Positions 10,544 through 49,316 are shown, counted from the stretch's first letter. The stretch: DNA of 64,000 nt from Patescibacteria group bacterium (GCA_040384865.1 JAZKIM010000004.1:75974-139973), one strand, 5' to 3'. Made by a program: numbers and translations. The notes: a model not told the origin generated them from the letters alone.

Positions 10544-11176
10544 ATGCATACTACCAAAAAAACATCTTTAGATCACCATAGATTCGAGCGAACGCTTGTT
10601 ATTATCAAACCCGACGGCATCCAGCGAAGTCTTATAGGGGAAATTATCGGACGATATGAGCGGATTGGTCTTAAATTGATTGGTCTTAAATTGATGGTGC
10701 CAACTGAAGAAATGGTGGAGCAACACTACACACTCGATCCTGAGTGGCGTCGGGTTACAGGAGAGAAGACTATAAAAGGCTACTTGGATAAGGGATTAAC
10801 TCCTCCAGTTACTGATCCATACGAAGTAACCTCAACACTTTTAATGAGGCTGAAGAAATACTTAACAGCAGGTCCTGTGATCGCAATGGTTTGGCAGGGT
10901 GCACATGCGGTTGAGATTGTGAGAAAGATAACTGGAAGCACTGAACCTCTTAAATCTCCAGTTGGAACTATTCGCGGTGATTACGTCCTCGATTCATATC
11001 AAATGACAGACAGTGATGGTCGTGCCATTCGCAATCTCATTCACGCTTCTGGTTCTCCTAAGGAAGCTGAAGACGAGATTACTCATTGGTTTAAGCCTGA
11101 GGAGTTACTTGACTATAAGCTCGTACAGGAGCAGATCACGTATTCGGCTAATATAATTGGAATATTTGGCGAATAA
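10544..11176 (+). CDS. ndk: Nucleoside diphosphate kinase (long variant, 210 aa)
   Basis: LVIIKPDGIQRSLIGEIIGRYE...; NDK fold motifs; contains an in-frame IGLKLIGLKL duplication. Confidence 0.85.
   Translation: MHTTKKTSLDHHRFERTLVIIKPDGIQRSLIGEIIGRYERIGLKLIGLKLMVPTEEMVEQHYTLDPEWRRVTGEKTIKGYLDKGLTPPVTDPYEVTSTLLMRLKKYLTAGPVIAMVWQGAHAVEIVRKITGSTEPLKSPVGTIRGDYVLDSYQMTDSDGRAIRNLIHASGSPKEAEDEITHWFKPEELLDYKLVQEQITYSANIIGIFGE
10664..10693 (+). repeat. Perfect 15-bp tandem duplication (attggtcttaaattg x2) inside ndk
   Basis: Read directly in the sequence; encodes IGLKL-IGLKL in frame. Confidence 0.9.
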
Positions 11177-11491
11177 CCTGGTTGTTTTGTGATTTATGAA
11201 GAAAAGTTCATAAACAGCGCATTGCAATAACAATTTCCCTTCATGTAAAGATTGCGAGAAGTTTTAAAAGTATAATAATGAACTTAGGGTTACTGGATAT
11301 GTTGGCTTAGATTATTTTCAAAACAGGGAGGTCACGTAGACTTGTGCCTTGGCACAGGCTCAGGCCACCCACCTAGATTACACTAGGTCCAACATTTCAC
11401 GGTAATCCTCGCAAAAACACTCGATGCCCTTACCGGCTTCGGGTGTTTGTGCTTTTATATATAGCCCCTATTTCGTCGTCGGTAGAGCCTC

Positions 11492-42295: not shown

Positions 42296-42303
42296 ATTAC
42301 TAA

Positions 42304-42331
42304 AATACCGCCTCTTGTGGCGGTATTTTAG
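42304..42331 (+). terminator. Rho-independent terminator after ftsH
   Basis: ACCGCC-tcttgt-GGCGGT followed by ATTTTA. Confidence 0.65.
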
Positions 42332-42479
42332 TCTGTGTTTTCTTGATCAAGATTCCATCATTAAGAACTCAACCCTAGTAGGTTTGACTTACAAAAATGG
42401 TTTTGGACATGGGATATGTCGGAAAGGAGTAAGAAGACAAGATCTTTTAGATTATGCACTACAAAGCCTCACCTTCTTG

Positions 42480-42600
42480 AGAAATGATTTATAGTGCCCT
42501 TGCGCGGTCTCGGAAAATGCAAGGTGAAACCCTAAAAGGATATTTAGAGGAAAATTTCTAAACTACTCTGACCCCTCTCGGCCTGACTTTATTTCAAAGT
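42480..42600. repeat. Repeated element, copy A (composite of modules seen in B and C)
   Basis: gtgcccttgcgcggtctcggaaaatgcaaggtgaaacc is ~80% identical to the B module; it also carries the 'ggatatttagaggaaaatttc' and 'cccctctcggcctgac' modules. Confidence 0.6.
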
Positions 42601-43590
42601 AAAGTATCCGGATTGCGTATAAATAGCAGGACCTTGCTTAATAGGAGAGCTATCGACTTCTATTTTGTATTTGCCGGCCGCTAGAGTTGTCGGGATTGAC
42701 CAGCTATAACTTCCTGTATTGCTTATATTAGTAGCAATCTTCTGAACTGATATGCCGCTCTCATTCAACAAATGAATATCTATTGGAAAATCAGTCTTAT
42801 TGACAGTATTCCATTGAATATTGATAGTCGTACCTCTTTTAAAATCGTCTGTGTTGTCTTCGGTATCAGGATAGATAAGGACAAGTTTAGGAGATGATAC
42901 GTCTGATGAGACTGTGGTCGAAGTGGTTACAATAGGAATTGATTTGAAAGTGGAAATAATTACTTTTATATCACTTAGGGCTTTAACATATTCGGCGTTA
43001 GAAGTTAATGAGTTCATACCAAAATAGATACTTGTATTCTGTGCTACATCAAAACTGAAGAAGTAGTCTGTCGTATTTGTCTTGGACGTAAAGCCTGTCG
43101 AGGTGTATTTCTTATCTCCCACTTGAACTTCTTCCTGTATTCTTATAGCTCCGATCCCCACGCCAGTAGATCCACAAGGATCATTGGCTCCGGAATTGAT
43201 GAGGATAAAACCAAGACCTTTTTTAATGGAGACACAAGATGAAGCATCAGTACCACTATCAACAGAAGTAACGACTGCATCTGATGGATACTGTATTGAG
43301 TAACCGTGTTTTGAATTGGTATAGGTTTTAAGAGTAGCTGAAACTGAAACAGAAGTATTTACCGTGTTTTGTTGAGTAACCGCAGATGGATTCTGAGTGG
43401 CGGTTTGTTGGGTTTCAACTGTTGCTTGTGTATTCGTATCTACTACTGGAACTGGCACTTCTACTTTTTTGTTTTCCTGATATACATATACTCCTCCACC
43501 AACTGCAAGTATTGCTATAATCGATAAGATCAAAGGAATAATAAAGCCGCTCTGTTTGTTTTTCATATGGCTTAATATTAGCTTAATCAA
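42589..43590 (-). CDS. Membrane-anchored secreted protein, paralog A (beta-rich, Thr/Ser-rich)
   Basis: 333 aa; N-terminal anchor MKNKQSGFIIPLILSIIAILAVGGGVYVYQENK nearly identical (also at DNA level, ~90% over ~100 bp) to that of 44859-45848. Confidence 0.6.
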   Translation of the reverse strand: MIKLILSHMKNKQSGFIIPLILSIIAILAVGGGVYVYQENKKVEVPVPVVDTNTQATVETQQTATQNPSAVTQQNTVNTSVSVSATLKTYTNSKHGYSIQYPSDAVVTSVDSGTDASSCVSIKKGLGFILINSGANDPCGSTGVGIGAIRIQEEVQVGDKKYTSTGFTSKTNTTDYFFSFDVAQNTSIYFGMNSLTSNAEYVKALSDIKVIISTFKSIPIVTTSTTVSSDVSSPKLVLIYPDTEDNTDDFKRGTTINIQWNTVNKTDFPIDIHLLNESGISVQKIATNISNTGSYSWSIPTTLAAGKYKIEVDSSPIKQGPAIYTQSGYFTLK

Positions 43591-43599
43591 AGGGACTTG

Positions 43600-43750
43600 G
43601 GTAGCAACTTACCAGCTTTAATCCACCTCGGTCTATCTCACTAAAGGGTGCCCTTGCTCGGTCTCGGATTATGTAAAGTGAGACCACACAAGGGTTGTTT
43701 GGAAGATCTTAGGATGTCGAATTGAGGCACCTCAGTCGGGATCAAATTTA
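43600..43750. repeat. Repeated upstream element, copy B (modules ctcggtctatctcactaaagggtgccc + ttgctcggtctcggattatgtaaagtgagacc)
   Basis: The 27-nt module at 43637-43663 recurs at 44741-44767 with 1 mismatch; the second module resembles 42494-42532. Further related copies lie at 42480-42600 and 45880-45915. Confidence 0.7.
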
Positions 43751-44695
43751 AACCGCGAAAGAATTGTGCTCTTTTTCAGGGTAATCGTAATAAGGAGCTG
43801 CATTTTTACTCATTTGTAAATTGGGCACATGACCTCTCTTCTTAAGAAAGACAAGTAGGTCTAGTTGCATTGCCAAATCTGGAGAGATACCACTTACATA
43901 TCCATGAACTATTTGTGGATTATTGAATGCCAGTCGCTTGTTAAATTTAAGCTTTCTCTGACCATCAAAGGTATTATGGATTCCTTCTATGCTATTACCA
44001 AACCTTACTTGAGATACTATACCCGGATAGACTTTAAATTCTATATCGATACAATTAGTTTTAGATCTGATTTCTGAAGGCAGTCCATCATCAGTTCTGC
44101 CATATGGTACATAAGGTAAATTTAAATGAGAAAATATTATATCTTTTAATTCTTCGGTAAGATTAGGTATATGATTTTCCTGAAAATCGTCGTTGTGCAA
44201 TACAACGGCTCTTGATCTAAAGTACTCCTCTAAATCTGTTGATAATTTTTCATTATCATCTGTAAGAATATTTAGAGCAACACCATCTTCTGTAAGAAGG
44301 TAATCTGGGCAAACTTTTTCAACAATTTCTTTTTGTCCCTCTTTAAGTCTTTCAACTAACCAAGGATTATCGAGTAATCTACCTCCAGTAAATCGAGTGG
44401 CCCTAATACTATCTGCAATGGTGGAACGTCTATCACCATCTCTTTGTTTGCGTATCTCATCTAACAAAGCTTTTCCATCGTACAAGACAGCAAACCTTTC
44501 AGCGTTTCCATCTAGACCAGGATAGACTTCTGGCAGCATGAATCCTTTAAATTCGACAACCTGCTTTTCGCGCTCAGCGTCTTTATATTCTTTTGAATTC
44601 TGAACTTCTGAAAATTTAGTCTTTCGTTCAACATGGTCAGGAATATTCTTCAATTCTTTCGCTTTTTCATCTCGCCATTGCTGCCAATTTTCCAT
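43748..44695 (-). CDS. Hypothetical cytoplasmic protein (315 aa)
   Basis: Uninterrupted ORF between the two paralogs on the same strand; no signal peptide, no motif recognised. Confidence 0.5.
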   Translation of the reverse strand: MENWQQWRDEKAKELKNIPDHVERKTKFSEVQNSKEYKDAEREKQVVEFKGFMLPEVYPGLDGNAERFAVLYDGKALLDEIRKQRDGDRRSTIADSIRATRFTGGRLLDNPWLVERLKEGQKEIVEKVCPDYLLTEDGVALNILTDDNEKLSTDLEEYFRSRAVVLHNDDFQENHIPNLTEELKDIIFSHLNLPYVPYGRTDDGLPSEIRSKTNCIDIEFKVYPGIVSQVRFGNSIEGIHNTFDGQRKLKFNKRLAFNNPQIVHGYVSGISPDLAMQLDLLVFLKKRGHVPNLQMSKNAAPYYDYPEKEHNSFAV

Positions 44696-44699
44696 GTCA

Positions 44700-44860
44700 G
44701 TATCTTAACTTAAAACCAACATTTTGTGTAATCTAAGCCTCTCGGTCTGTCTCACTAAAGGGTGCCCCCGCTAGGAATCGAACTTTTTATAATGAAGCGT
44801 TGTAAGGGTTATTTAGAGAATTTCAGTTTGGTAAATCTAGCCCGCTCGGTCTAATCAATT
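44700..44860. repeat. Repeated upstream element, copy C
   Basis: Contains ctcggtctgtctcactaaagggtgccc (44741-44767), a 'gggttatttagagaatttc' module also present at 42537-42557, and 'cccgctcggtctaatc' resembling 42572-42587. Confidence 0.7.
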
Positions 44861-45848
44861 ATCCCTGTTTCCATGATGAGGCAACCAATTCAATGGTTGT
44901 TTTATTGCTTATTCCTGAATCTATAACGACATACTTAGTTGAATTATAAACTTTATAGTACTCTATTGTATTTTGAGTGCCGCCATCAGTCATGCCAATA
45001 TTTTTTGTATACCATACCTCACCATTAAGTGTAACTTTCGTAGCGCTAGTCAAATCAATATATTTATTCTCAACAAGCGAAATATTGATTCGATCCGTAG
45101 TAGAAATAGTTTTATTAATTACCTGATCCGCCTTGCTTTTAGGGTAGGCTATCGTGAGTCCGATTACTGAATTAGCTTCCCATATATCCCAGTCAGAAGG
45201 ATAAGAGAATCCGTAGGATGATCCCGAGTAGGATTTTGTGCTAACTTGCTGATTGGTATTCGTATTTAGATCTAAAATAATTGGAACCTCTACTGTTTTA
45301 CTTGGCTCGATAGCCGCTGCATTTTCTGCAGTAAAGAGAATCTTCATTGGAGTACCAGATGGAATCCCTATGCCTCCATTGTTAAAATTAAGAACAAGCT
45401 CAAAAGAAGTTGTTTTGGCTGTCCAATCACTGACTCTTACAGGTACCGAAGTTCCAATAGGCTTCCATCCTTGATTTTCATAGTTGAAGAATAGTTGGGC
45501 TGTACCTGCCTGTCCTTCAAACATCTGCCAAGAACAGCCTGTTGCGCTATTATCAATCGTTCCTTTTACAGTTAGAGGGAAGGAGACTTTTGAATTAGCA
45601 GCAAGAGAGGTAACGACCAAGGCACACTTTTGTATTTGGCCGACGGTATTATTTTTCACAGGAGTTTCTTCTGTTTTTACCTGACTTTCGTTTGAAGTAG
45701 TTGTTACCGTATTATCAATCTCTATATTTTCAGCTACTTTATTTTCCTGATATACATATACCCCTCCACCAACCGCAAGTATTGCCACAATTGCCAAGAT
45801 CAAGGGAATAATAAATCCGCTTTGTTTATTTTTCATATCTTTAATCAT
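44859..45848 (-). CDS. Membrane-anchored secreted protein, paralog B
   Basis: 329 aa; shares the N-terminal anchor with 42589-43590, C-terminal part diverged. Confidence 0.6.
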   Translation of the reverse strand: MIKDMKNKQSGFIIPLILAIVAILAVGGGVYVYQENKVAENIEIDNTVTTTSNESQVKTEETPVKNNTVGQIQKCALVVTSLAANSKVSFPLTVKGTIDNSATGCSWQMFEGQAGTAQLFFNYENQGWKPIGTSVPVRVSDWTAKTTSFELVLNFNNGGIGIPSGTPMKILFTAENAAAIEPSKTVEVPIILDLNTNTNQQVSTKSYSGSSYGFSYPSDWDIWEANSVIGLTIAYPKSKADQVINKTISTTDRINISLVENKYIDLTSATKVTLNGEVWYTKNIGMTDGGTQNTIEYYKVYNSTKYVVIDSGISNKTTIELVASSWKQG

Positions 45849-45915
45849 AGCTTGGTTTTAGGTCTTTAGGTAACAACTTGCCAATTTCTACCCACCTCGG
45901 TAGGTCTCACAATCT

Positions 45916-45991
45916 GGTGCGCGTGCCTGGACTCGAACCAGGGACCGCCAAGGTATAAGCTTGATGCTCTAACCAGCTGAGCTACACGCGC
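45916..45991 (-). tRNA. tRNA with anticodon UAU (Ile, AUA-reading), CCA encoded
   Basis: Minus-strand sequence GCGCGTGTAGCTCAGCTGGTTAGAGCATCAAGCTTATACCTTGGCGGTCCCTGGTTCGAGTCCAGGCACGCGCACCA folds as a cloverleaf: acceptor GCGCGTG/CACGCGC, D-arm GCTC..GAGC, anticodon stem TCAAG/CTTGG with loop CTTATAC, T-arm CCTGG-TTCGAGT-CCAGG. Confidence 0.7.
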
Positions 45992-46050
45992 GTAGGGCCA
46001 ATAGTATAGTAAATATTTGAGTTTATCAATTCAAGGCGTATCATAGGAAA

Positions 46051-47067
46051 ATGAATGTTTTATACACTGTAAAATCAATCAAAAAAGAGCTTCTTAAGAT
46101 AAAACCCTCAAAAGTGGTTGTTGTTGTTTCGAATAATATACAAAATATCCAGTCAGGTATTGTAAAAGAGGTAGCGGTTCTTTCGAAAGCAATTAAAGTG
46201 ATTGCCGTCAACGACGGTGAGGATCTTAAAAGTTGGAAATCTATTGAGAAATTATTAACTAAGTTTTTAAAGCTTGGGTTGGATAGAAAAAGTCTGATTA
46301 TTGCTATCGGCGGGGGAAGTATAGGAGATGCTGTTGGTTTTGCCAGCTCGATATATCTTCGTGGTATACCGTATATAAACATACCAACCACTTTGCTAGC
46401 TCAAGTTGATAGTGCTCATGGTGGAAAGACTGGTATTAATTTTGGTTCATATAAAAATCAAATCGGTACGTTCCACGAATCAGTGGCAACGGTTATTGAT
46501 CCTCGTTTCATTCAGACATTATCTGAAGAAGAGATTGTTAGTGGCTTGGGAGAAATAATTAAAGCTGGTTATCTCGCTGATCCATCTATTTTGTTATCAT
46601 TACAAAAAGAAACTACTGCAACACTGGCACAGAGCAAAAAATTGTTAACCATAATTCGAAAGGCTATTGAAGTAAAACGTTATTGTGTATTGAAGGATTT
46701 TAAGGATAAGGGGGTTAGACAATTGCTAAATTTAGGACATACGGTTAGTCATTCCATAGAGTTAAAGTACAAATTGAGCCATGGGCGAGCAGTTATTATT
46801 GGCATGATGGAAGAGTTTGAAATGAGTGAGCGTGCTGGTTTGAGTAAAATCGGCCTAACCTCTTCTCTTAAGGTGCTTCTAGAAAAACTTGGTATTTCTA
46901 ACGAAAAGAAATATATTCCAGATTGGAACGCTGTCATGAAGGATAAGAAGGTAAGTGGTGAAAATCTTGAATGGCCGATCATTACGGAAATTGGAAAGGC
47001 TAATTTGGTGAAAGTTAGTTTAAATAATTTTAAGGATTTGTTTAAGGGCGGAAAGATTTATAATTAA
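46051..47067 (+). CDS. 3-dehydroquinate synthase family protein (AroB-like, short)
   Basis: GGGSIGDAVGFASSIYLRGIPYINIPTTLLAQVDSAHGGKTGINF: NAD-binding glycine motif and the metal/substrate region of the DHQS-like superfamily; 338 aa. Confidence 0.65.
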   Translation: MNVLYTVKSIKKELLKIKPSKVVVVVSNNIQNIQSGIVKEVAVLSKAIKVIAVNDGEDLKSWKSIEKLLTKFLKLGLDRKSLIIAIGGGSIGDAVGFASSIYLRGIPYINIPTTLLAQVDSAHGGKTGINFGSYKNQIGTFHESVATVIDPRFIQTLSEEEIVSGLGEIIKAGYLADPSILLSLQKETTATLAQSKKLLTIIRKAIEVKRYCVLKDFKDKGVRQLLNLGHTVSHSIELKYKLSHGRAVIIGMMEEFEMSERAGLSKIGLTSSLKVLLEKLGISNEKKYIPDWNAVMKDKKVSGENLEWPIITEIGKANLVKVSLNNFKDLFKGGKIYN

Positions 47068-47129
47068 ATCTTCTGGGCGGAGAGGGAGAGTAGGTTCGGG
47101 CTTTTGGGAAATATAGTTTGTTTGGATTT

Positions 47130-49316
47130 TTACTCAAAATGATTTTCTTCTCGCGTTTTTAGGATGTGAGCCAGGAGGCTATTTTCAGGTTTCAATAGTG
47201 TTGGATCGTTAGCGATAAGTGTTTGTGCCTCTTTGCGCGCAGCTTCTACCATTTTCAGATTCTTTATAGCCTCCATGGCAACATCAGAAATGCCCCACTG
47301 TTTTCCGACATATAGTTCGCCAGCTCCTCGCATCTGGAGATCAAGTTCGGAGAGCTCAAATCCATTTTTTGCTGTAACTAAAGCTTTGAGTCTTTCGACT
47401 GTCTTGTCACTTTTGCTTTCTGTTGCTACGAAACAATATGGTTGATGAGTTCCTCTGATGACGCGGCCCCGTAGCTGATGGAGCTGCGAGAGACCGAATC
47501 GCTCACCCCCTTCAATGAGGATAACGTTTGCGTTTGGAACATTTACCCCCACCTCGACCACGGACGTTGCAACGAGAATATCAATTTCGTGCTTGGCGAA
47601 GCGTTCCATGGTTGCTTCTTTTTCTGCAGGCTTCATTTTGCTGTGCAAAATATCTATTCGAGAATCCTTAAATACATCTTTTTTAAGACGCTTGGCTTCT
47701 TCTTTTACAGATTTAGCCAGTATGCTTTGTTCTTTGTCGGGATCGGGTTCGTCTATACGGGGACATATGACGTAGCATTGGCGGCCAGCTGCAAGCTCAA
47801 GGCGCATGCGGTCATAAGCTTTTTCTCGCTGGCCAATCGTACCAGCTATTTCTGTAAGTACTTTCTTTCGGCCGGCCGGCATCTGGTCGAGGATGGAAAG
47901 ATCGAGGTCTCCATATAAAGTGAGAGCGAGAGTGCGGGGAATTGGTGTGGCTGTCATTGAAAGAAGATGGGGTGTGACATCGTGTTTGCGCGCAAGTTTT
48001 TGACGTTGTGCGGTTCCAAAGCGATGTTGTTCATCGATGATGACGTATGCGAGGTCTTTGAACTTAACTGATTTTTGAATGAGGGCGTGCGTGCCGATGA
48101 CAACAGCAATCTCACCATTCGCTACCCATTTTAGAAATTGAGAACGAGAAATGTCAGTCCATCCGTTTGGGTTTATCTTAGATGGAAACTTTCTGCAACC
48201 ATTTCCAGTAATGAGGCCGATGGAAATGGGCATGTGTCGAAAAAGTTTTATGAACGATTCGAAATGTTGTCGAGCAAGAATTTCGGTTGGAGCCATGTAG
48301 CCTACTTGAAGGGTGCCGGCAACCCGGCCTTTTGGCCGTGTCGTTACGGCAGCATATGAAGTGACCGCTGCAACAGCTGTCTTTCCAGAGCCTACATCAC
48401 CTTCAAGTAGGCGAGACATGGGTTGACCTTTGGCGAAGTCTGCCAAGATATCCTCAACTGATTTTTGTTGTGCTTCGGTCAAGGGAAAGCCGAGACGTTC
48501 AATGAAATTGCTAACACCGACGCTCGCTGCCGGTTTGTCGATGATGAATGATTTCTCTTTTGCCTGAAGCGCGCGCGTTTGCTGATTTTTCAATTGAATG
48601 AAAAATACTTCTTCGAATGCAAAACGCTTTCGCGCCACTTCAGCGTCAGAATCTTTTTGTGGTGCATGCATCCACACGAGCGCAGTAGCAAGATTGGGTA
48701 GTTTATATCGTTCGCGAATGGCGGAGGGGATTGGGTCTGTGTCAGTAGCCTCGTTGCTAACCATGTCTTGAAATTCTTTTGTTTTGAATATGCGCTGGAG
48801 AGCGTGGAAGAACCAGCGTGACGTGATGCCTTTTGTTTCTGAGTAAACAGGAACGCCTACCGTTGGCGCTCCTTCACCAAAAAGTGATTTTCCTATATTT
48901 ACAGGAAGAACACCTATGGATTCGATTTCGGGATTGAGAAATGCAAGAACACCATTTCTGTCGGTAACCTTACCCGACACTTTTACCAAGCTGTCTGGCT
49001 GAATCAGTTTTGCAATATATGGTTGATGAAGCCATATGACTTTGACGCGAGAAGTGTCGTCTTCAATGAAACCTTCGGCCATAGGCATTCGACCACGAAA
49101 AGATTTGCTTGTTTTAAGGGAAGTGACTTTTCCAAATATTGTCGCCTGTTCGCCGCTTGTAAGATCGCGGATAAATTTTCCTGAGGCTGATTCGCCGTAG
49201 CGTAAGGGAAAATGATACAGTAGCTCCCCGACAGTTTGAAGGCCGATCTTTTGCAGTGCAGATCCTTGCTGCGGAGTAAGACGAAAAAGGTCAGAGAGAG
49301 GTGTCGAGAATAACAT
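47130..49316 (-). CDS. recG: ATP-dependent DNA helicase RecG
   Basis: 728 aa; N-terminal wedge domain, helicase motifs GDVGSGKT, DEQHRFG, QLHQLRGRVIRG. Confidence 0.95.
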   Translation of the reverse strand: MLFSTPLSDLFRLTPQQGSALQKIGLQTVGELLYHFPLRYGESASGKFIRDLTSGEQATIFGKVTSLKTSKSFRGRMPMAEGFIEDDTSRVKVIWLHQPYIAKLIQPDSLVKVSGKVTDRNGVLAFLNPEIESIGVLPVNIGKSLFGEGAPTVGVPVYSETKGITSRWFFHALQRIFKTKEFQDMVSNEATDTDPIPSAIRERYKLPNLATALVWMHAPQKDSDAEVARKRFAFEEVFFIQLKNQQTRALQAKEKSFIIDKPAASVGVSNFIERLGFPLTEAQQKSVEDILADFAKGQPMSRLLEGDVGSGKTAVAAVTSYAAVTTRPKGRVAGTLQVGYMAPTEILARQHFESFIKLFRHMPISIGLITGNGCRKFPSKINPNGWTDISRSQFLKWVANGEIAVVIGTHALIQKSVKFKDLAYVIIDEQHRFGTAQRQKLARKHDVTPHLLSMTATPIPRTLALTLYGDLDLSILDQMPAGRKKVLTEIAGTIGQREKAYDRMRLELAAGRQCYVICPRIDEPDPDKEQSILAKSVKEEAKRLKKDVFKDSRIDILHSKMKPAEKEATMERFAKHEIDILVATSVVEVGVNVPNANVILIEGGERFGLSQLHQLRGRVIRGTHQPYCFVATESKSDKTVERLKALVTAKNGFELSELDLQMRGAGELYVGKQWGISDVAMEAIKNLKMVEAARKEAQTLIANDPTLLKPENSLLAHILKTREENHFE

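Follow-up and report, generated by a model that had tools for sequence, protein, structure and literature searches.

The 64,000-nucleotide stretch of Patescibacteria group bacterium DNA analyzed here (GCA_040384865.1 JAZKIM010000004.1:75974-139973; its whole length is termed the window) carries on its minus strand a tRNA-Ile(UAU) gene followed by three protein-coding genes that are separated by conserved intergenic modules. We examined this array, its modules (called X) and related loci in other contigs. The features are collected in Table 1, for which the conserved MKNKQSGF starts were used to set the open reading frame (ORF) coordinates of the two genes for membrane-anchored proteins. An earlier note on this DNA had described three minus-strand genes behind the tRNA, an element shared by all of them, and a motif abutting the tRNA. 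ORF and tRNA calls bore out the gene order, the sequence GTGAGA-N3-ACCGAG (GTGAGANNNACCGAG) is indeed found in front of all three genes, and the motif starts 7 nt past the discriminator base of the tRNA. Each unit in the window spans approximately 1.11-1.15 kb and contains one gene. The array is neighbored by ftsH, a 3-dehydroquinate-synthase-like (DHQS-like) gene and recG, as judged from inspected translations and from similarity to genes annotated in related contigs.

Table 1. Features of the array anchored at tRNA-Ile(UAU), listed in the direction of minus-strand transcription, with positions in the window.
Feature	Position	Strand	Basis or remark
Sigma-70-like promoter, TTGATA-17-TACTAT	46001..46029	-	consensus scan only; ends 10 nt before tRNA-Ile start
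tRNA-Ile(UAU), array anchor (putative attB-side partner)	45915..45991	-	ARAGORN; Rfam tRNA, 69 bits
Junction A, CCAGATT + GTGAGACCTACCGAGGTGG	45892..45914	-	putative P'-type element end directly after tRNA
TATGAT, -10-like box, 7 nt before ATG of the 329-aa gene (325 aa from MKNKQ)	45844..45849	-	upstream-region alignment
Cassette 1 cargo: 325-aa membrane-anchored protein, ectodomain without Pfam family	44859..45836	-	
X_B, internal attP-like module	44738..44858	-	nhmmer E = 1.9e-20
TAAGAT, -10-like box, 6 nt before ATG of the 315-aa gene	44702..44707	-	upstream-region alignment
Cassette 2 cargo: 315-aa protein, no predicted membrane anchor	43748..44695	-	
X_C, internal attP-like module	43623..43747	-	nhmmer E = 2.7e-21
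TAATAT, -10-like box, 8 nt before ATG of the 333-aa (325-aa) gene	43575..43580	-	upstream-region alignment
Cassette 3 cargo: 325-aa membrane-anchored protein, C-terminal Kre9/KNH Ig-like domain	42589..43566	-	Pfam PF10342, E = 1.4e-11
X_D, terminal module	42494..42588	-	nhmmer E = 2.9e-18
Bidirectional intrinsic-terminator-like hairpin, array versus convergent ftsH	42299..42332	both	14-bp stem, T runs flanking on both strands

The proteins of cassettes 1 and 3 are alike only in their first ~35 residues, the membrane anchor, and a comparison of their ectodomains revealed no detectable similarity. The DNA shared by the two genes covers 174 nt at 79% identity, from the motif through approximately codon 36, and includes a 110-nt core at 85% identity. 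Their previous description as paralogous secreted proteins therefore holds for the anchor but not for the ectodomains, and that of the array as a variable surface-protein locus suits two of the three genes but not the middle one, for which no membrane anchor is predicted. This middle gene is unrelated to both others. Its 315-aa product (NCBI V4664_02405, Patescibacteria group bacterium) belongs to no family in Pfam, PHROG or PADLOC, and neither these libraries nor a profile search made it recognizable as a recombinase. The family is very small, with three relatives among 5.8 billion proteins; the profile search returned 11 matches at E ≤ 0.001 in a library of 1.84 billion representatives, and an AlphaFold model was unusable (pLDDT 38). 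The window protein carries a 27-residue N-terminal extension, MENWQQWRDEKAKELKNIPDHVERKTKF (44615-44695), that is absent from two homologs starting MSEPGTP. Since only the window protein has this extension, the 5' end of the cassette appears to have been remodeled next to the ACCGAG core.

The X modules are approximately 120 nt long and, in the window, start right after a stop codon. Read in gene direction, a module consists of a first ACCGAG-type core, a conserved arm (with the pieces AACCCTTAC/GGGTCTCAC and, further along, TCCGAGACCGAG), a remnant that resembles a tRNA 3' end and closes in GGGCAC, and the segment C-N6-GTGAGA-N3-ACCGAG. X_B and X_C are complete, and before the first gene the true tRNA-Ile stands in the place of the arm. 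In X_B, the first core lies within 44836-44854, the remnant AGTTCGATTCCTAGCGGGGGCAC (44762-44784) is tRNA-Arg(UCU)-like from the T-loop to the end, and the module finishes with CCTTTA plus GTGAGACAGACCGAGAGG (44738-44755). X_C has a core variant within 43722-43740, an inverted repeat formed by GGTCTCAC (43678-43685) and CCGAGACC (43660-43667), the remnant GAGCAAGGGCAC (43648-43659), and an end composed of CCTTTA plus GTGAGATAGACCGAGGTGG (43623-43641); it also contains the near-palindrome AAGGG-CA-CCCTT. X_D comprises an arm and the remnant GCGCAAGGGCAC (42494-42505) with no GTGAGA motif, and its likeness to the other modules ends at GCAC, beyond which the sequence is unrelated. The remnants of X_C and X_D are shorter and of GGGCAC type. 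Three direct ACCGAG-type cores, all similar to the tRNA-Arg end CCTACCGAGGGCA, are present in every X, and the module ends are direct rather than inverted repeats.

Exact copies of GTGAGANNNACCGAG occur three times in the 64 kb, all at this locus (45896-45910, 44741-44755 and 43627-43641). With up to two mismatches allowed, 11 matches were observed, a number reached by none of 100 shuffles. X_B and X_C have a 27-nt module in common (26 of 27 nt, 96% identity), and X_C and X_D one of 21 nt (95% identity). The shared modules reported previously are real, although two of the coordinates given for them were 10 nt off: one module lies at 43627-43653 rather than 43637-43663 and another at 43648-43685 rather than 43658-43695. 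The octamer CTCGGTCT, credited with at least seven occurrences, has four exact and two one-mismatch copies in the region.

The X_B remnant corresponds to 22 of the 23 nt at the 3' end of tRNA-Arg(UCU) in L069 and L036 (L-numbers denote related contigs and metagenome loci that were compared with the window). A displaced 3' end of tRNA-Ile, the tRNA resident here, had also been considered as its origin, with 24 of 26 positions identical to the tRNA-Ile of L008; this origin was dropped in view of the better fit of tRNA-Arg(UCU) and the Arg type of the other remnants. A reading of X as a complete degenerate tRNA was likewise rejected, as only the portion from the T-loop to the 3' end is tRNA-like and there is neither a 5' acceptor strand nor a T-stem partner.

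We considered it very improbable that X acts as a structured RNA, i.e., as a tRNA-like processing signal (RNase P/Z punctuation), a stabilizer or a small RNA within a polycistron transcribed from the tRNA promoter. X_B does contain the T-loop-like sequence GTTCGATTCC and an acceptor-like end followed by A-C-C, and the only promoter to pass a consensus scan lies upstream of the tRNA. In addition, a 6-bp internal inverted repeat, GGTCTC/GAGACC, is partly conserved and weakly covarying, being kept in 77% of cells versus 69% in shuffled data, with double changes at two pairs. However, X_B has neither the 5' strand of a T-stem nor that of an acceptor stem, so that no cloverleaf or mini-helix is possible. 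A tRNA covariance model matched the true tRNA alone and gave not even a partial match to X. Only tRNA and tmRNA passed the Rfam gathering threshold in the whole window, and relaxing the search to E ≤ 10 added no known RNA family in the region and found none in 16 related loci. RNAalifold, run on 7 and on 16 homologous copies, predicted 0 pairs each time; what is conserved is the order of the sequence, not its pairing. The lack of an Rfam match and of a consensus fold, together with the position of the motif before a convergent recombinase gene in several loci (see below), does not support the earlier proposal of a conserved regulatory or RNA element.

Each gene does appear to have a promoter of its own. 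An alignment of six homologous upstream regions contains an invariant T-A-x-x-A-T 6-8 nt before the ATG and approximately 45-55 nt downstream of the GTGAGA-N3-ACCGAG motif. The same TANNAT box precedes the ATG in L019, L021 and L036, and no Shine-Dalgarno sequence is visible in the aligned regions. We infer that these boxes serve as promoters, one per unit; with a -10 box at this distance from the start codon, the transcripts would be leaderless or nearly so. The fixed spacing between motif and box, together with the duplicated 5' block that extends over the first ~36 codons of the two anchor genes, is also what would be expected if a tRNA-proximal promoter/operator had been locally duplicated in tandem, with GTGAGA-N3-ACCGAG a transcription-factor site and the tRNA incidental. 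Evidence from other loci makes this explanation improbable, as described below.

A pattern scan for GCAC-N6-GTRAGA-N3-ACCGAGRNGG over JGI and other metagenome contigs returned 46 loci. About 33 of these, with 31-51% GC and resembling bacteria of the candidate phyla radiation (CPR), appear real; ten have 60-71% GC and no tRNA context and look like chance matches, as do probably three more (L033 and L034, which have no tRNA-like context, and the weak L038). In 20 of the ~33 loci, a tRNA called by ARAGORN ends exactly at the motif, and several more tRNAs are cut by contig ends. These 20 tRNAs are Arg-UCU (10), Lys-UUU (3), Leu-UAA (2, in near-identical contigs) and, once each, Arg-GCG, Arg-CCU, Arg-UCG, Tyr and Ile-GAU. 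Other scanned loci have X-like remnants where the tRNA would stand, and degenerate remnants are present with no tRNA in L019, L030, L057 and L060. The motif is not a general tRNA trailer, as it is missing at the tRNA-Ser and tmRNA of the window and at other tRNAs of L010, L024 and L051. Viral contigs scanned for the motif gave no match. A duplication scar restricted to the copies in the window had been named as the outcome that would undo the earlier interpretation; the element proved to be conserved in many metagenomic contigs. Altogether, at least 10 different anticodons are represented among the tRNAs that precede the motif, in contigs that are unrelated and have unrelated genes downstream, which argues against a locally duplicated operator.

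The same loci revealed a candidate enzyme. Downstream DNA of at least 2.9 kb was available for 18 of the real loci, and six of these contain a 440-450-aa ORF, located 0.1-2.3 kb from the motif and always reading towards the tRNA. The protein has the recombinase catalytic motif YARKSTxxE..Q (...VKYCLYARKSTESEE.Q), and its representative in L027 matches the Pfam families Resolvase (PF00239), Recombinase (PF07508) and Zn_ribbon_recom (PF13408), identifying it as a large serine recombinase (LSR). It belongs to a very large and conserved family: protein clusters scoring E ≤ 1e-60 number at least 7998, and identity in the top 120 is 73-100%. Members were found in the related elements L025, L027, L030, L037, L043, L047, L064, L065 and L069. 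As an independent test, four loci were picked by the recombinase protein alone and not by the motif; three of them (L064, L065 and L069) proved to carry a tRNA-Arg, oriented as expected and 1.6-4.4 kb past the stop codon of the recombinase gene, that is followed directly by the motif or by a close variant. In L037 and L047, the gene next to the motif is the convergent recombinase, so that nothing is present there for the motif to regulate.

Two complete elements could be delimited. The L037 element (~4.0 kb) begins at a tRNA-Arg(GCG) ending ...CGAGGGCAC, which is followed across the boundary by AGGCAT-GTGAGACCTACCGAG..., the recombinase gene, a peptidase-like cargo and an X-type arm (nhmmer E = 1.5e-12); the arm finishes in GGGCAC (...AACCGAGCAAGGGCAC) at the far boundary, after which comes the flank. 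The L069 element (~4.85 kb) begins at a tRNA-Arg(UCU) ending ...CTAGCGGGGGCAC, followed across the boundary by ATGCTA-GTGAGACCTACTGAG..., the recombinase gene and an X-type arm (E = 6.4e-15) that ends ...CCGAGACTGGGCAAGGGCAC at the boundary. In an alignment of 16 sequences, the X modules are colinear with the far-end arms of both elements, and joining the far arm to the near end of an element of this type reproduces the internal X modules of the window. As L037 and L069 both run from a tRNA plus the motif to an X-type arm with GGGCAC, the X modules between the genes of the window would be attP-type joints between tandem elements. The presence in one module of tRNA-Arg-like remnants and of an arm with homology to the distal ends of recombinase elements, as well as the terminal X_D with no gene behind it, is difficult to accommodate if the modules were duplicated operators.

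Immediately upstream of the arm in L002 (9615-9640), L003 (770-795), L037 and L069 is a tandem hexamer, TGT(A/C)AC-N4-TGT(A/C)AC-(A)TTT, which could be an accessory binding site or part of a promoter; it is missing in the window, where the ORF stop codons abut the arm. The possibility that the arm is a leftover of the 5' coding region of the recombinase was raised by a 12-nt resemblance (AACCCTTAC...) and was rejected, since a profile search gave no support.

We then compared the sites occupied by relatives of the cassette genes. Homologs of the 315-aa protein in L002 (ENA) and L003 (JGI) have X modules on both flanks (nhmmer E = 1e-15 to 1e-19), and TATAAT is found 6-7 nt before their ATG. 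Their neighbors, which include a SEC-C protein, a Shedu-type SduA_C protein and a methyltransferase, are wholly unlike those in the window. The 315-aa unit thus has the same boundaries in three unrelated contexts, an observation that simple duplication leaves unexplained. A homolog of the 329-aa protein (83% identity) lies behind tRNA-Ile(UAU) and the same motif in L008, where its gene alone separates ftsH from recG, in an orientation opposite to that in the window; the ftsH-recG site accordingly holds one gene in L008 versus three cassettes plus the DHQS-like gene in the window. In L010, another homolog (74% identity) lies behind tRNA-Gly(GCC) plus GTAAGATAGACCGAG, with an X-like module downstream. 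More distant homologs of the 329-aa ectodomain in L012 and L015 have no motif, no X and no adjacent tRNA, indicating that the modules do not simply travel with this protein family. Five copies of X follow tRNA-Arg(UCU) in L036, with unrelated single genes between them, an architecture like that of the window; L021 has one cassette plus a terminal X, and in L059 the motif is fused to the arm with no cargo. Unit sizes are 1.04-1.08 kb in L002, L003, L019 and L021 and 0.47-1.05 kb in L036. The earlier suggestion of a duplicated cassette system agrees with these data, as the modules bound single-gene units and relatives carry other cargo at such sites.

Several of these loci have further peculiarities. 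L010 (10001-10965) encodes a 286-aa homolog of the 329-aa protein with a different C-terminal part, and a leftover fragment coding for the old C-terminus (...SNKATIEIIASSWKQG*) is located ~45 nt past the stop codon, before the X-like module, which indicates that the ectodomain has been replaced behind a constant promoter and anchor block. In L036 (oriented, -2290 to +1750 from the motif), the 22 nt past the true tRNA-Arg(UCU), AATCAAGGTAGATGCGGAGG..., recur at ~85% identity after the third X arm; this suggests a diverged GTGAGA-ACCGAG arm and hence, possibly, two right-arm subtypes in one array. Two copies of a ~190-nt repeat resembling a miniature inverted-repeat transposable element, with terminal inverted repeats GGTCAGGCACC...GGTGCCTGACC, lie in L002 (~10878-11075 and 11233-11425), immediately past the X module that is downstream of the 315-aa homolog. 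L045 (reverse orientation) has a tandem series of five paralogous ORFs (174-357 aa) 0.1-4.8 kb downstream of tRNA-Lys(UUU) plus the motif; they lie on the strand that does not encode the tRNA and all start M..QEQ..N.SNLQ.LE.EV.L.K.EMEEF.KLP.EE.E. This is an expanded gene family within a tRNA-side region.

The position at which units are joined could be narrowed by comparing arms. Terminal arms lose their likeness right after GCAC in X_D, L021, L036, L037 and L069, and after GTAC in L019. Conversely, one right arm (GCACCCAATAGTGAGACC...) starts at GCAC after a tRNA in L051, after an X arm in L028 and after a degenerate remnant in L060. By inspection of the sequence, X_C, L036a and L020 have at this boundary a 5+5 dyad around a non-palindromic dinucleotide, AAGGG-CA-CCCTT, of which X_B shows a weaker form (3 of 5); an outer TCTCAC/GTGAGA pair is centred ~12 nt further left. 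Serine-recombinase cores usually consist of a short dyad around a non-palindromic dinucleotide. Strand exchange probably takes place at or near the CA of GCAC, and insertion would then occur at the last bases of the tRNA gene, leaving the tRNA body intact.

The sequences directly show the architecture of the modules, their likeness to the ends of recombinase elements, the association with tRNA genes and the variable cargo in relatives. In the reading that we favor, with a probability of roughly 0.6, the intergenic modules are att-site joints of tRNA-targeting LSR elements in Patescibacteria that also carry promoters, and the locus looks like a swappable gene-cassette site rather than a regulatory RNA. 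Specifically, small integrative elements would be inserted by the LSR at the extreme 3' end of tRNA genes in these CPR bacteria. A complete element would start where the tRNA ends, with GGGCA on the tRNA side and C-N6-GTGAGA-N3-ACCGAG as the right arm (P'), continue with cargo and an LSR gene reading back towards the tRNA, and finish in a ~95-nt left arm (P) that closes in a mimic of the tRNA 3' end, ...CCGAGACCGAGCAAGGGCAC. Where elements are in tandem, the left arm of one would meet the right arm of the next to give the P arm, GGGCAC and C-N6-GTGAGA-N3-ACCGAG, and X_D would be a left arm alone, followed by unrelated flank. The window would then consist of tRNA-Ile(UAU) and three ~1.1-kb one-gene units with no recombinase. 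On this sequence evidence, the LSR is the likely enzyme acting on X and P' sites, and the units are likely to have arrived by serial integration rather than local duplication.

A number of points weigh against this reading. The remnants match tRNA-Arg(UCU), whereas the resident tRNA is tRNA-Ile; the modules mimic the commonest target of the recombinase family and not the resident tRNA. The complete recombinase elements that were delimited number only two, and the far ends of L025, L027, L043 and L047 were not recognizable in the DNA available. At recombinase locus L063, neither a tRNA nor the motif lies within 10 kb, and phmmer found no LSR homolog encoded in the 64-kb window, L002, L003, L008 or L010. 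Several breakpoints fall at ACCGAG and not at GCAC, namely in L059 and, when L008 is compared with the window, at either side of the 329-aa gene. Neither these breakpoints nor the three direct ACCGAG cores are explained by a simple attP x attB exchange at GCAC; the breakpoints could reflect secondary recombination at pseudo-sites or deletion between direct repeats. Finally, serine integrases normally depend on a defined attB right half, for which this reading offers no counterpart at a virgin tRNA site.

The missing recombinase is also compatible with the idea that the three units are fossils, i.e., full recombinase elements that integrated serially at tRNA-Ile and then lost the recombinase and most of their cargo, such that the modules are inert scars kept only as promoters. 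This would imply the same origin but no present-day cassette mobility. The degenerate appearance of X_D and of ~200 nt beyond it, as well as the degenerate remnants found without a tRNA in the survey, fits such decay. However, the units seem too uniform to have decayed independently, being ~1.0-1.15 kb in most loci (the smaller units of L036 notwithstanding) with exactly one gene each; the boundaries of the 315-aa unit are identical in all three of its contexts, and X_B and X_C still differ at a single position of their 27-nt module. We therefore regard fossils as an unlikely, though not negligible, explanation of the array.

The surroundings of the array show additional signs of rearrangement. 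The 338-aa DHQS-like gene (46051-47067, plus strand, with 45992-46050 and 47068-47129 on its two sides) lies between the tRNA-Ile promoter and recG and has a low GC content, 35-37% versus 45-47% in recG. It is missing in L008, whose ftsH-recG gap is occupied by tRNA-Ile and a single cassette, both oriented the other way. Best matches to its product among 185,579 species genomes are only 31-35% identical and come from Bacteroidota and Selenomonadales, and no X module was found on its flanks. It looks like a second acquisition plus inversion at the same hot spot. recG adjoins the tRNA/cassette region both in the window (47130-49316) and in L008 (2123-4264), and in L019 (oriented) an ORF with a RecG-like N-terminus is nearby, 2105-4387 bases past the motif; this lineage may have a preferred hot spot at the tRNA beside recG. 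On the other side, ~200 nt of non-coding DNA separate X_D from the ftsH terminator (42296-42493). This segment contains TCTCAAGAAGGTGAGG, a faint resemblance to the ACCGAG-GTGG core, and may be the decayed remains of a further unit; an Rfam match to Phe_leader in it is not significant (E = 0.51). The UAU anticodon of the tRNA-Ile is genomically encoded and is kept in L008 (975-1048), although the two tRNAs differ in their acceptor, anticodon and T stems; the usual bacterial arrangement for this tRNA-Ile is a CAU anticodon plus lysidine. CCA is encoded in the tRNA-Ile of the window but not in its tRNA-Ser.

Among known systems, tRNA gene (tDNA) and tycheposon islands are the closest in layout. 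In Prochlorococcus, tycheposon islands grow by new elements displacing older ones outwards, with partial tRNAs and degenerate remnants left behind, and a minority of tycheposons use a large serine recombinase (bioRxiv 10.1101/2020.12.28.424599). The loci described here share with these islands their position at the 3' side of a tRNA, partial-tRNA repeats between units, variable cargo, recombinase-less remnants and, presumably, the outward displacement of older units by newer ones. However, almost all such islands use tyrosine integrases, with crossover inside the tRNA (anticodon loop or T-loop), whereas here an LSR is associated and the boundaries fall at the last tRNA bases (GCAC). Moreover, the units are ~1-kb and single-gene, the composite site is long (~120 nt) and well conserved, and the remnants mimic tRNA-Arg even beside tRNA-Ile.

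The array also resembles an integron array in having one-gene units in the same orientation, each followed by a ~100-nt module resembling a recombination site, in carrying the same cargo in different arrays, and in the existence of a cargo-less unit (L059). In contrast to integrons, there is no attC-type hairpin (the RNAalifold result given above), the cassettes are not promoterless if the -10 box of each is taken as a promoter, and the anchor is a tRNA gene rather than attI/Pc. The locus is not an integron, although the array functionally resembles one. A stronger proposal, that CPR bacteria possess an integron-like cassette system built on a serine recombinase, with single-gene units of 0.5-1.2 kb, each having a ~120-nt attP-type site (tRNA-3'-end mimic plus GTGAGA-N3-ACCGAG) and a leaderless promoter, is one that we put forward only tentatively. 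An LSR supplied in trans by a complete sibling element would excise and insert such units, which would pile up behind tRNAs as exchangeable arrays of genes for surface proteins and other accessory functions.

With LSR prophages and islands (phiC31, Bxb1, A118, SCCmec Ccr), the associated recombinase family, though not the window itself, shares the Resolvase, Recombinase and zinc-ribbon domains; the location of the recombinase gene next to one end of the element is a further similarity, and the short dyad around a non-palindromic dinucleotide may be another. The att sites of characterized serine integrases are ~40-50 bp long and have no repeated direct cores. To our knowledge, characterized serine integrases such as phiC31, Bxb1 and A118 target protein-coding genes or intergenic sites and not tRNA 3' ends, and we know of no description of arrays of recombinase-less single-gene units in LSR systems, composite islands of the SCC (staphylococcal cassette chromosome) type aside. 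A full-text literature search, which was limited to the library searched and is no proof of novelty, found no description of such elements in Patescibacteria.

CPR bacteria have tiny genomes, depend on host cells and are mostly uncultured, and how they acquire and shuffle accessory genes, especially those for surface proteins, is poorly understood. The window and the ~33 related loci point to a very widespread and highly conserved LSR family that seems to target the very end of tRNA genes, where arrays of one-gene units, each with its own putative promoter, would be left behind. Even if the units are only fossils, they would represent a clear case of tRNA-island accretion by a serine recombinase in these bacteria. 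If the units can instead be mobilized in trans, they would constitute a second, mechanistically different route to integron-like cassette arrays. The X/P' modules would then be a marker for the flexible gene pool of CPR genomes, and the recombinases would be natural serine integrases with defined tRNA-end targets, possible tools for organisms that currently have no genetics.

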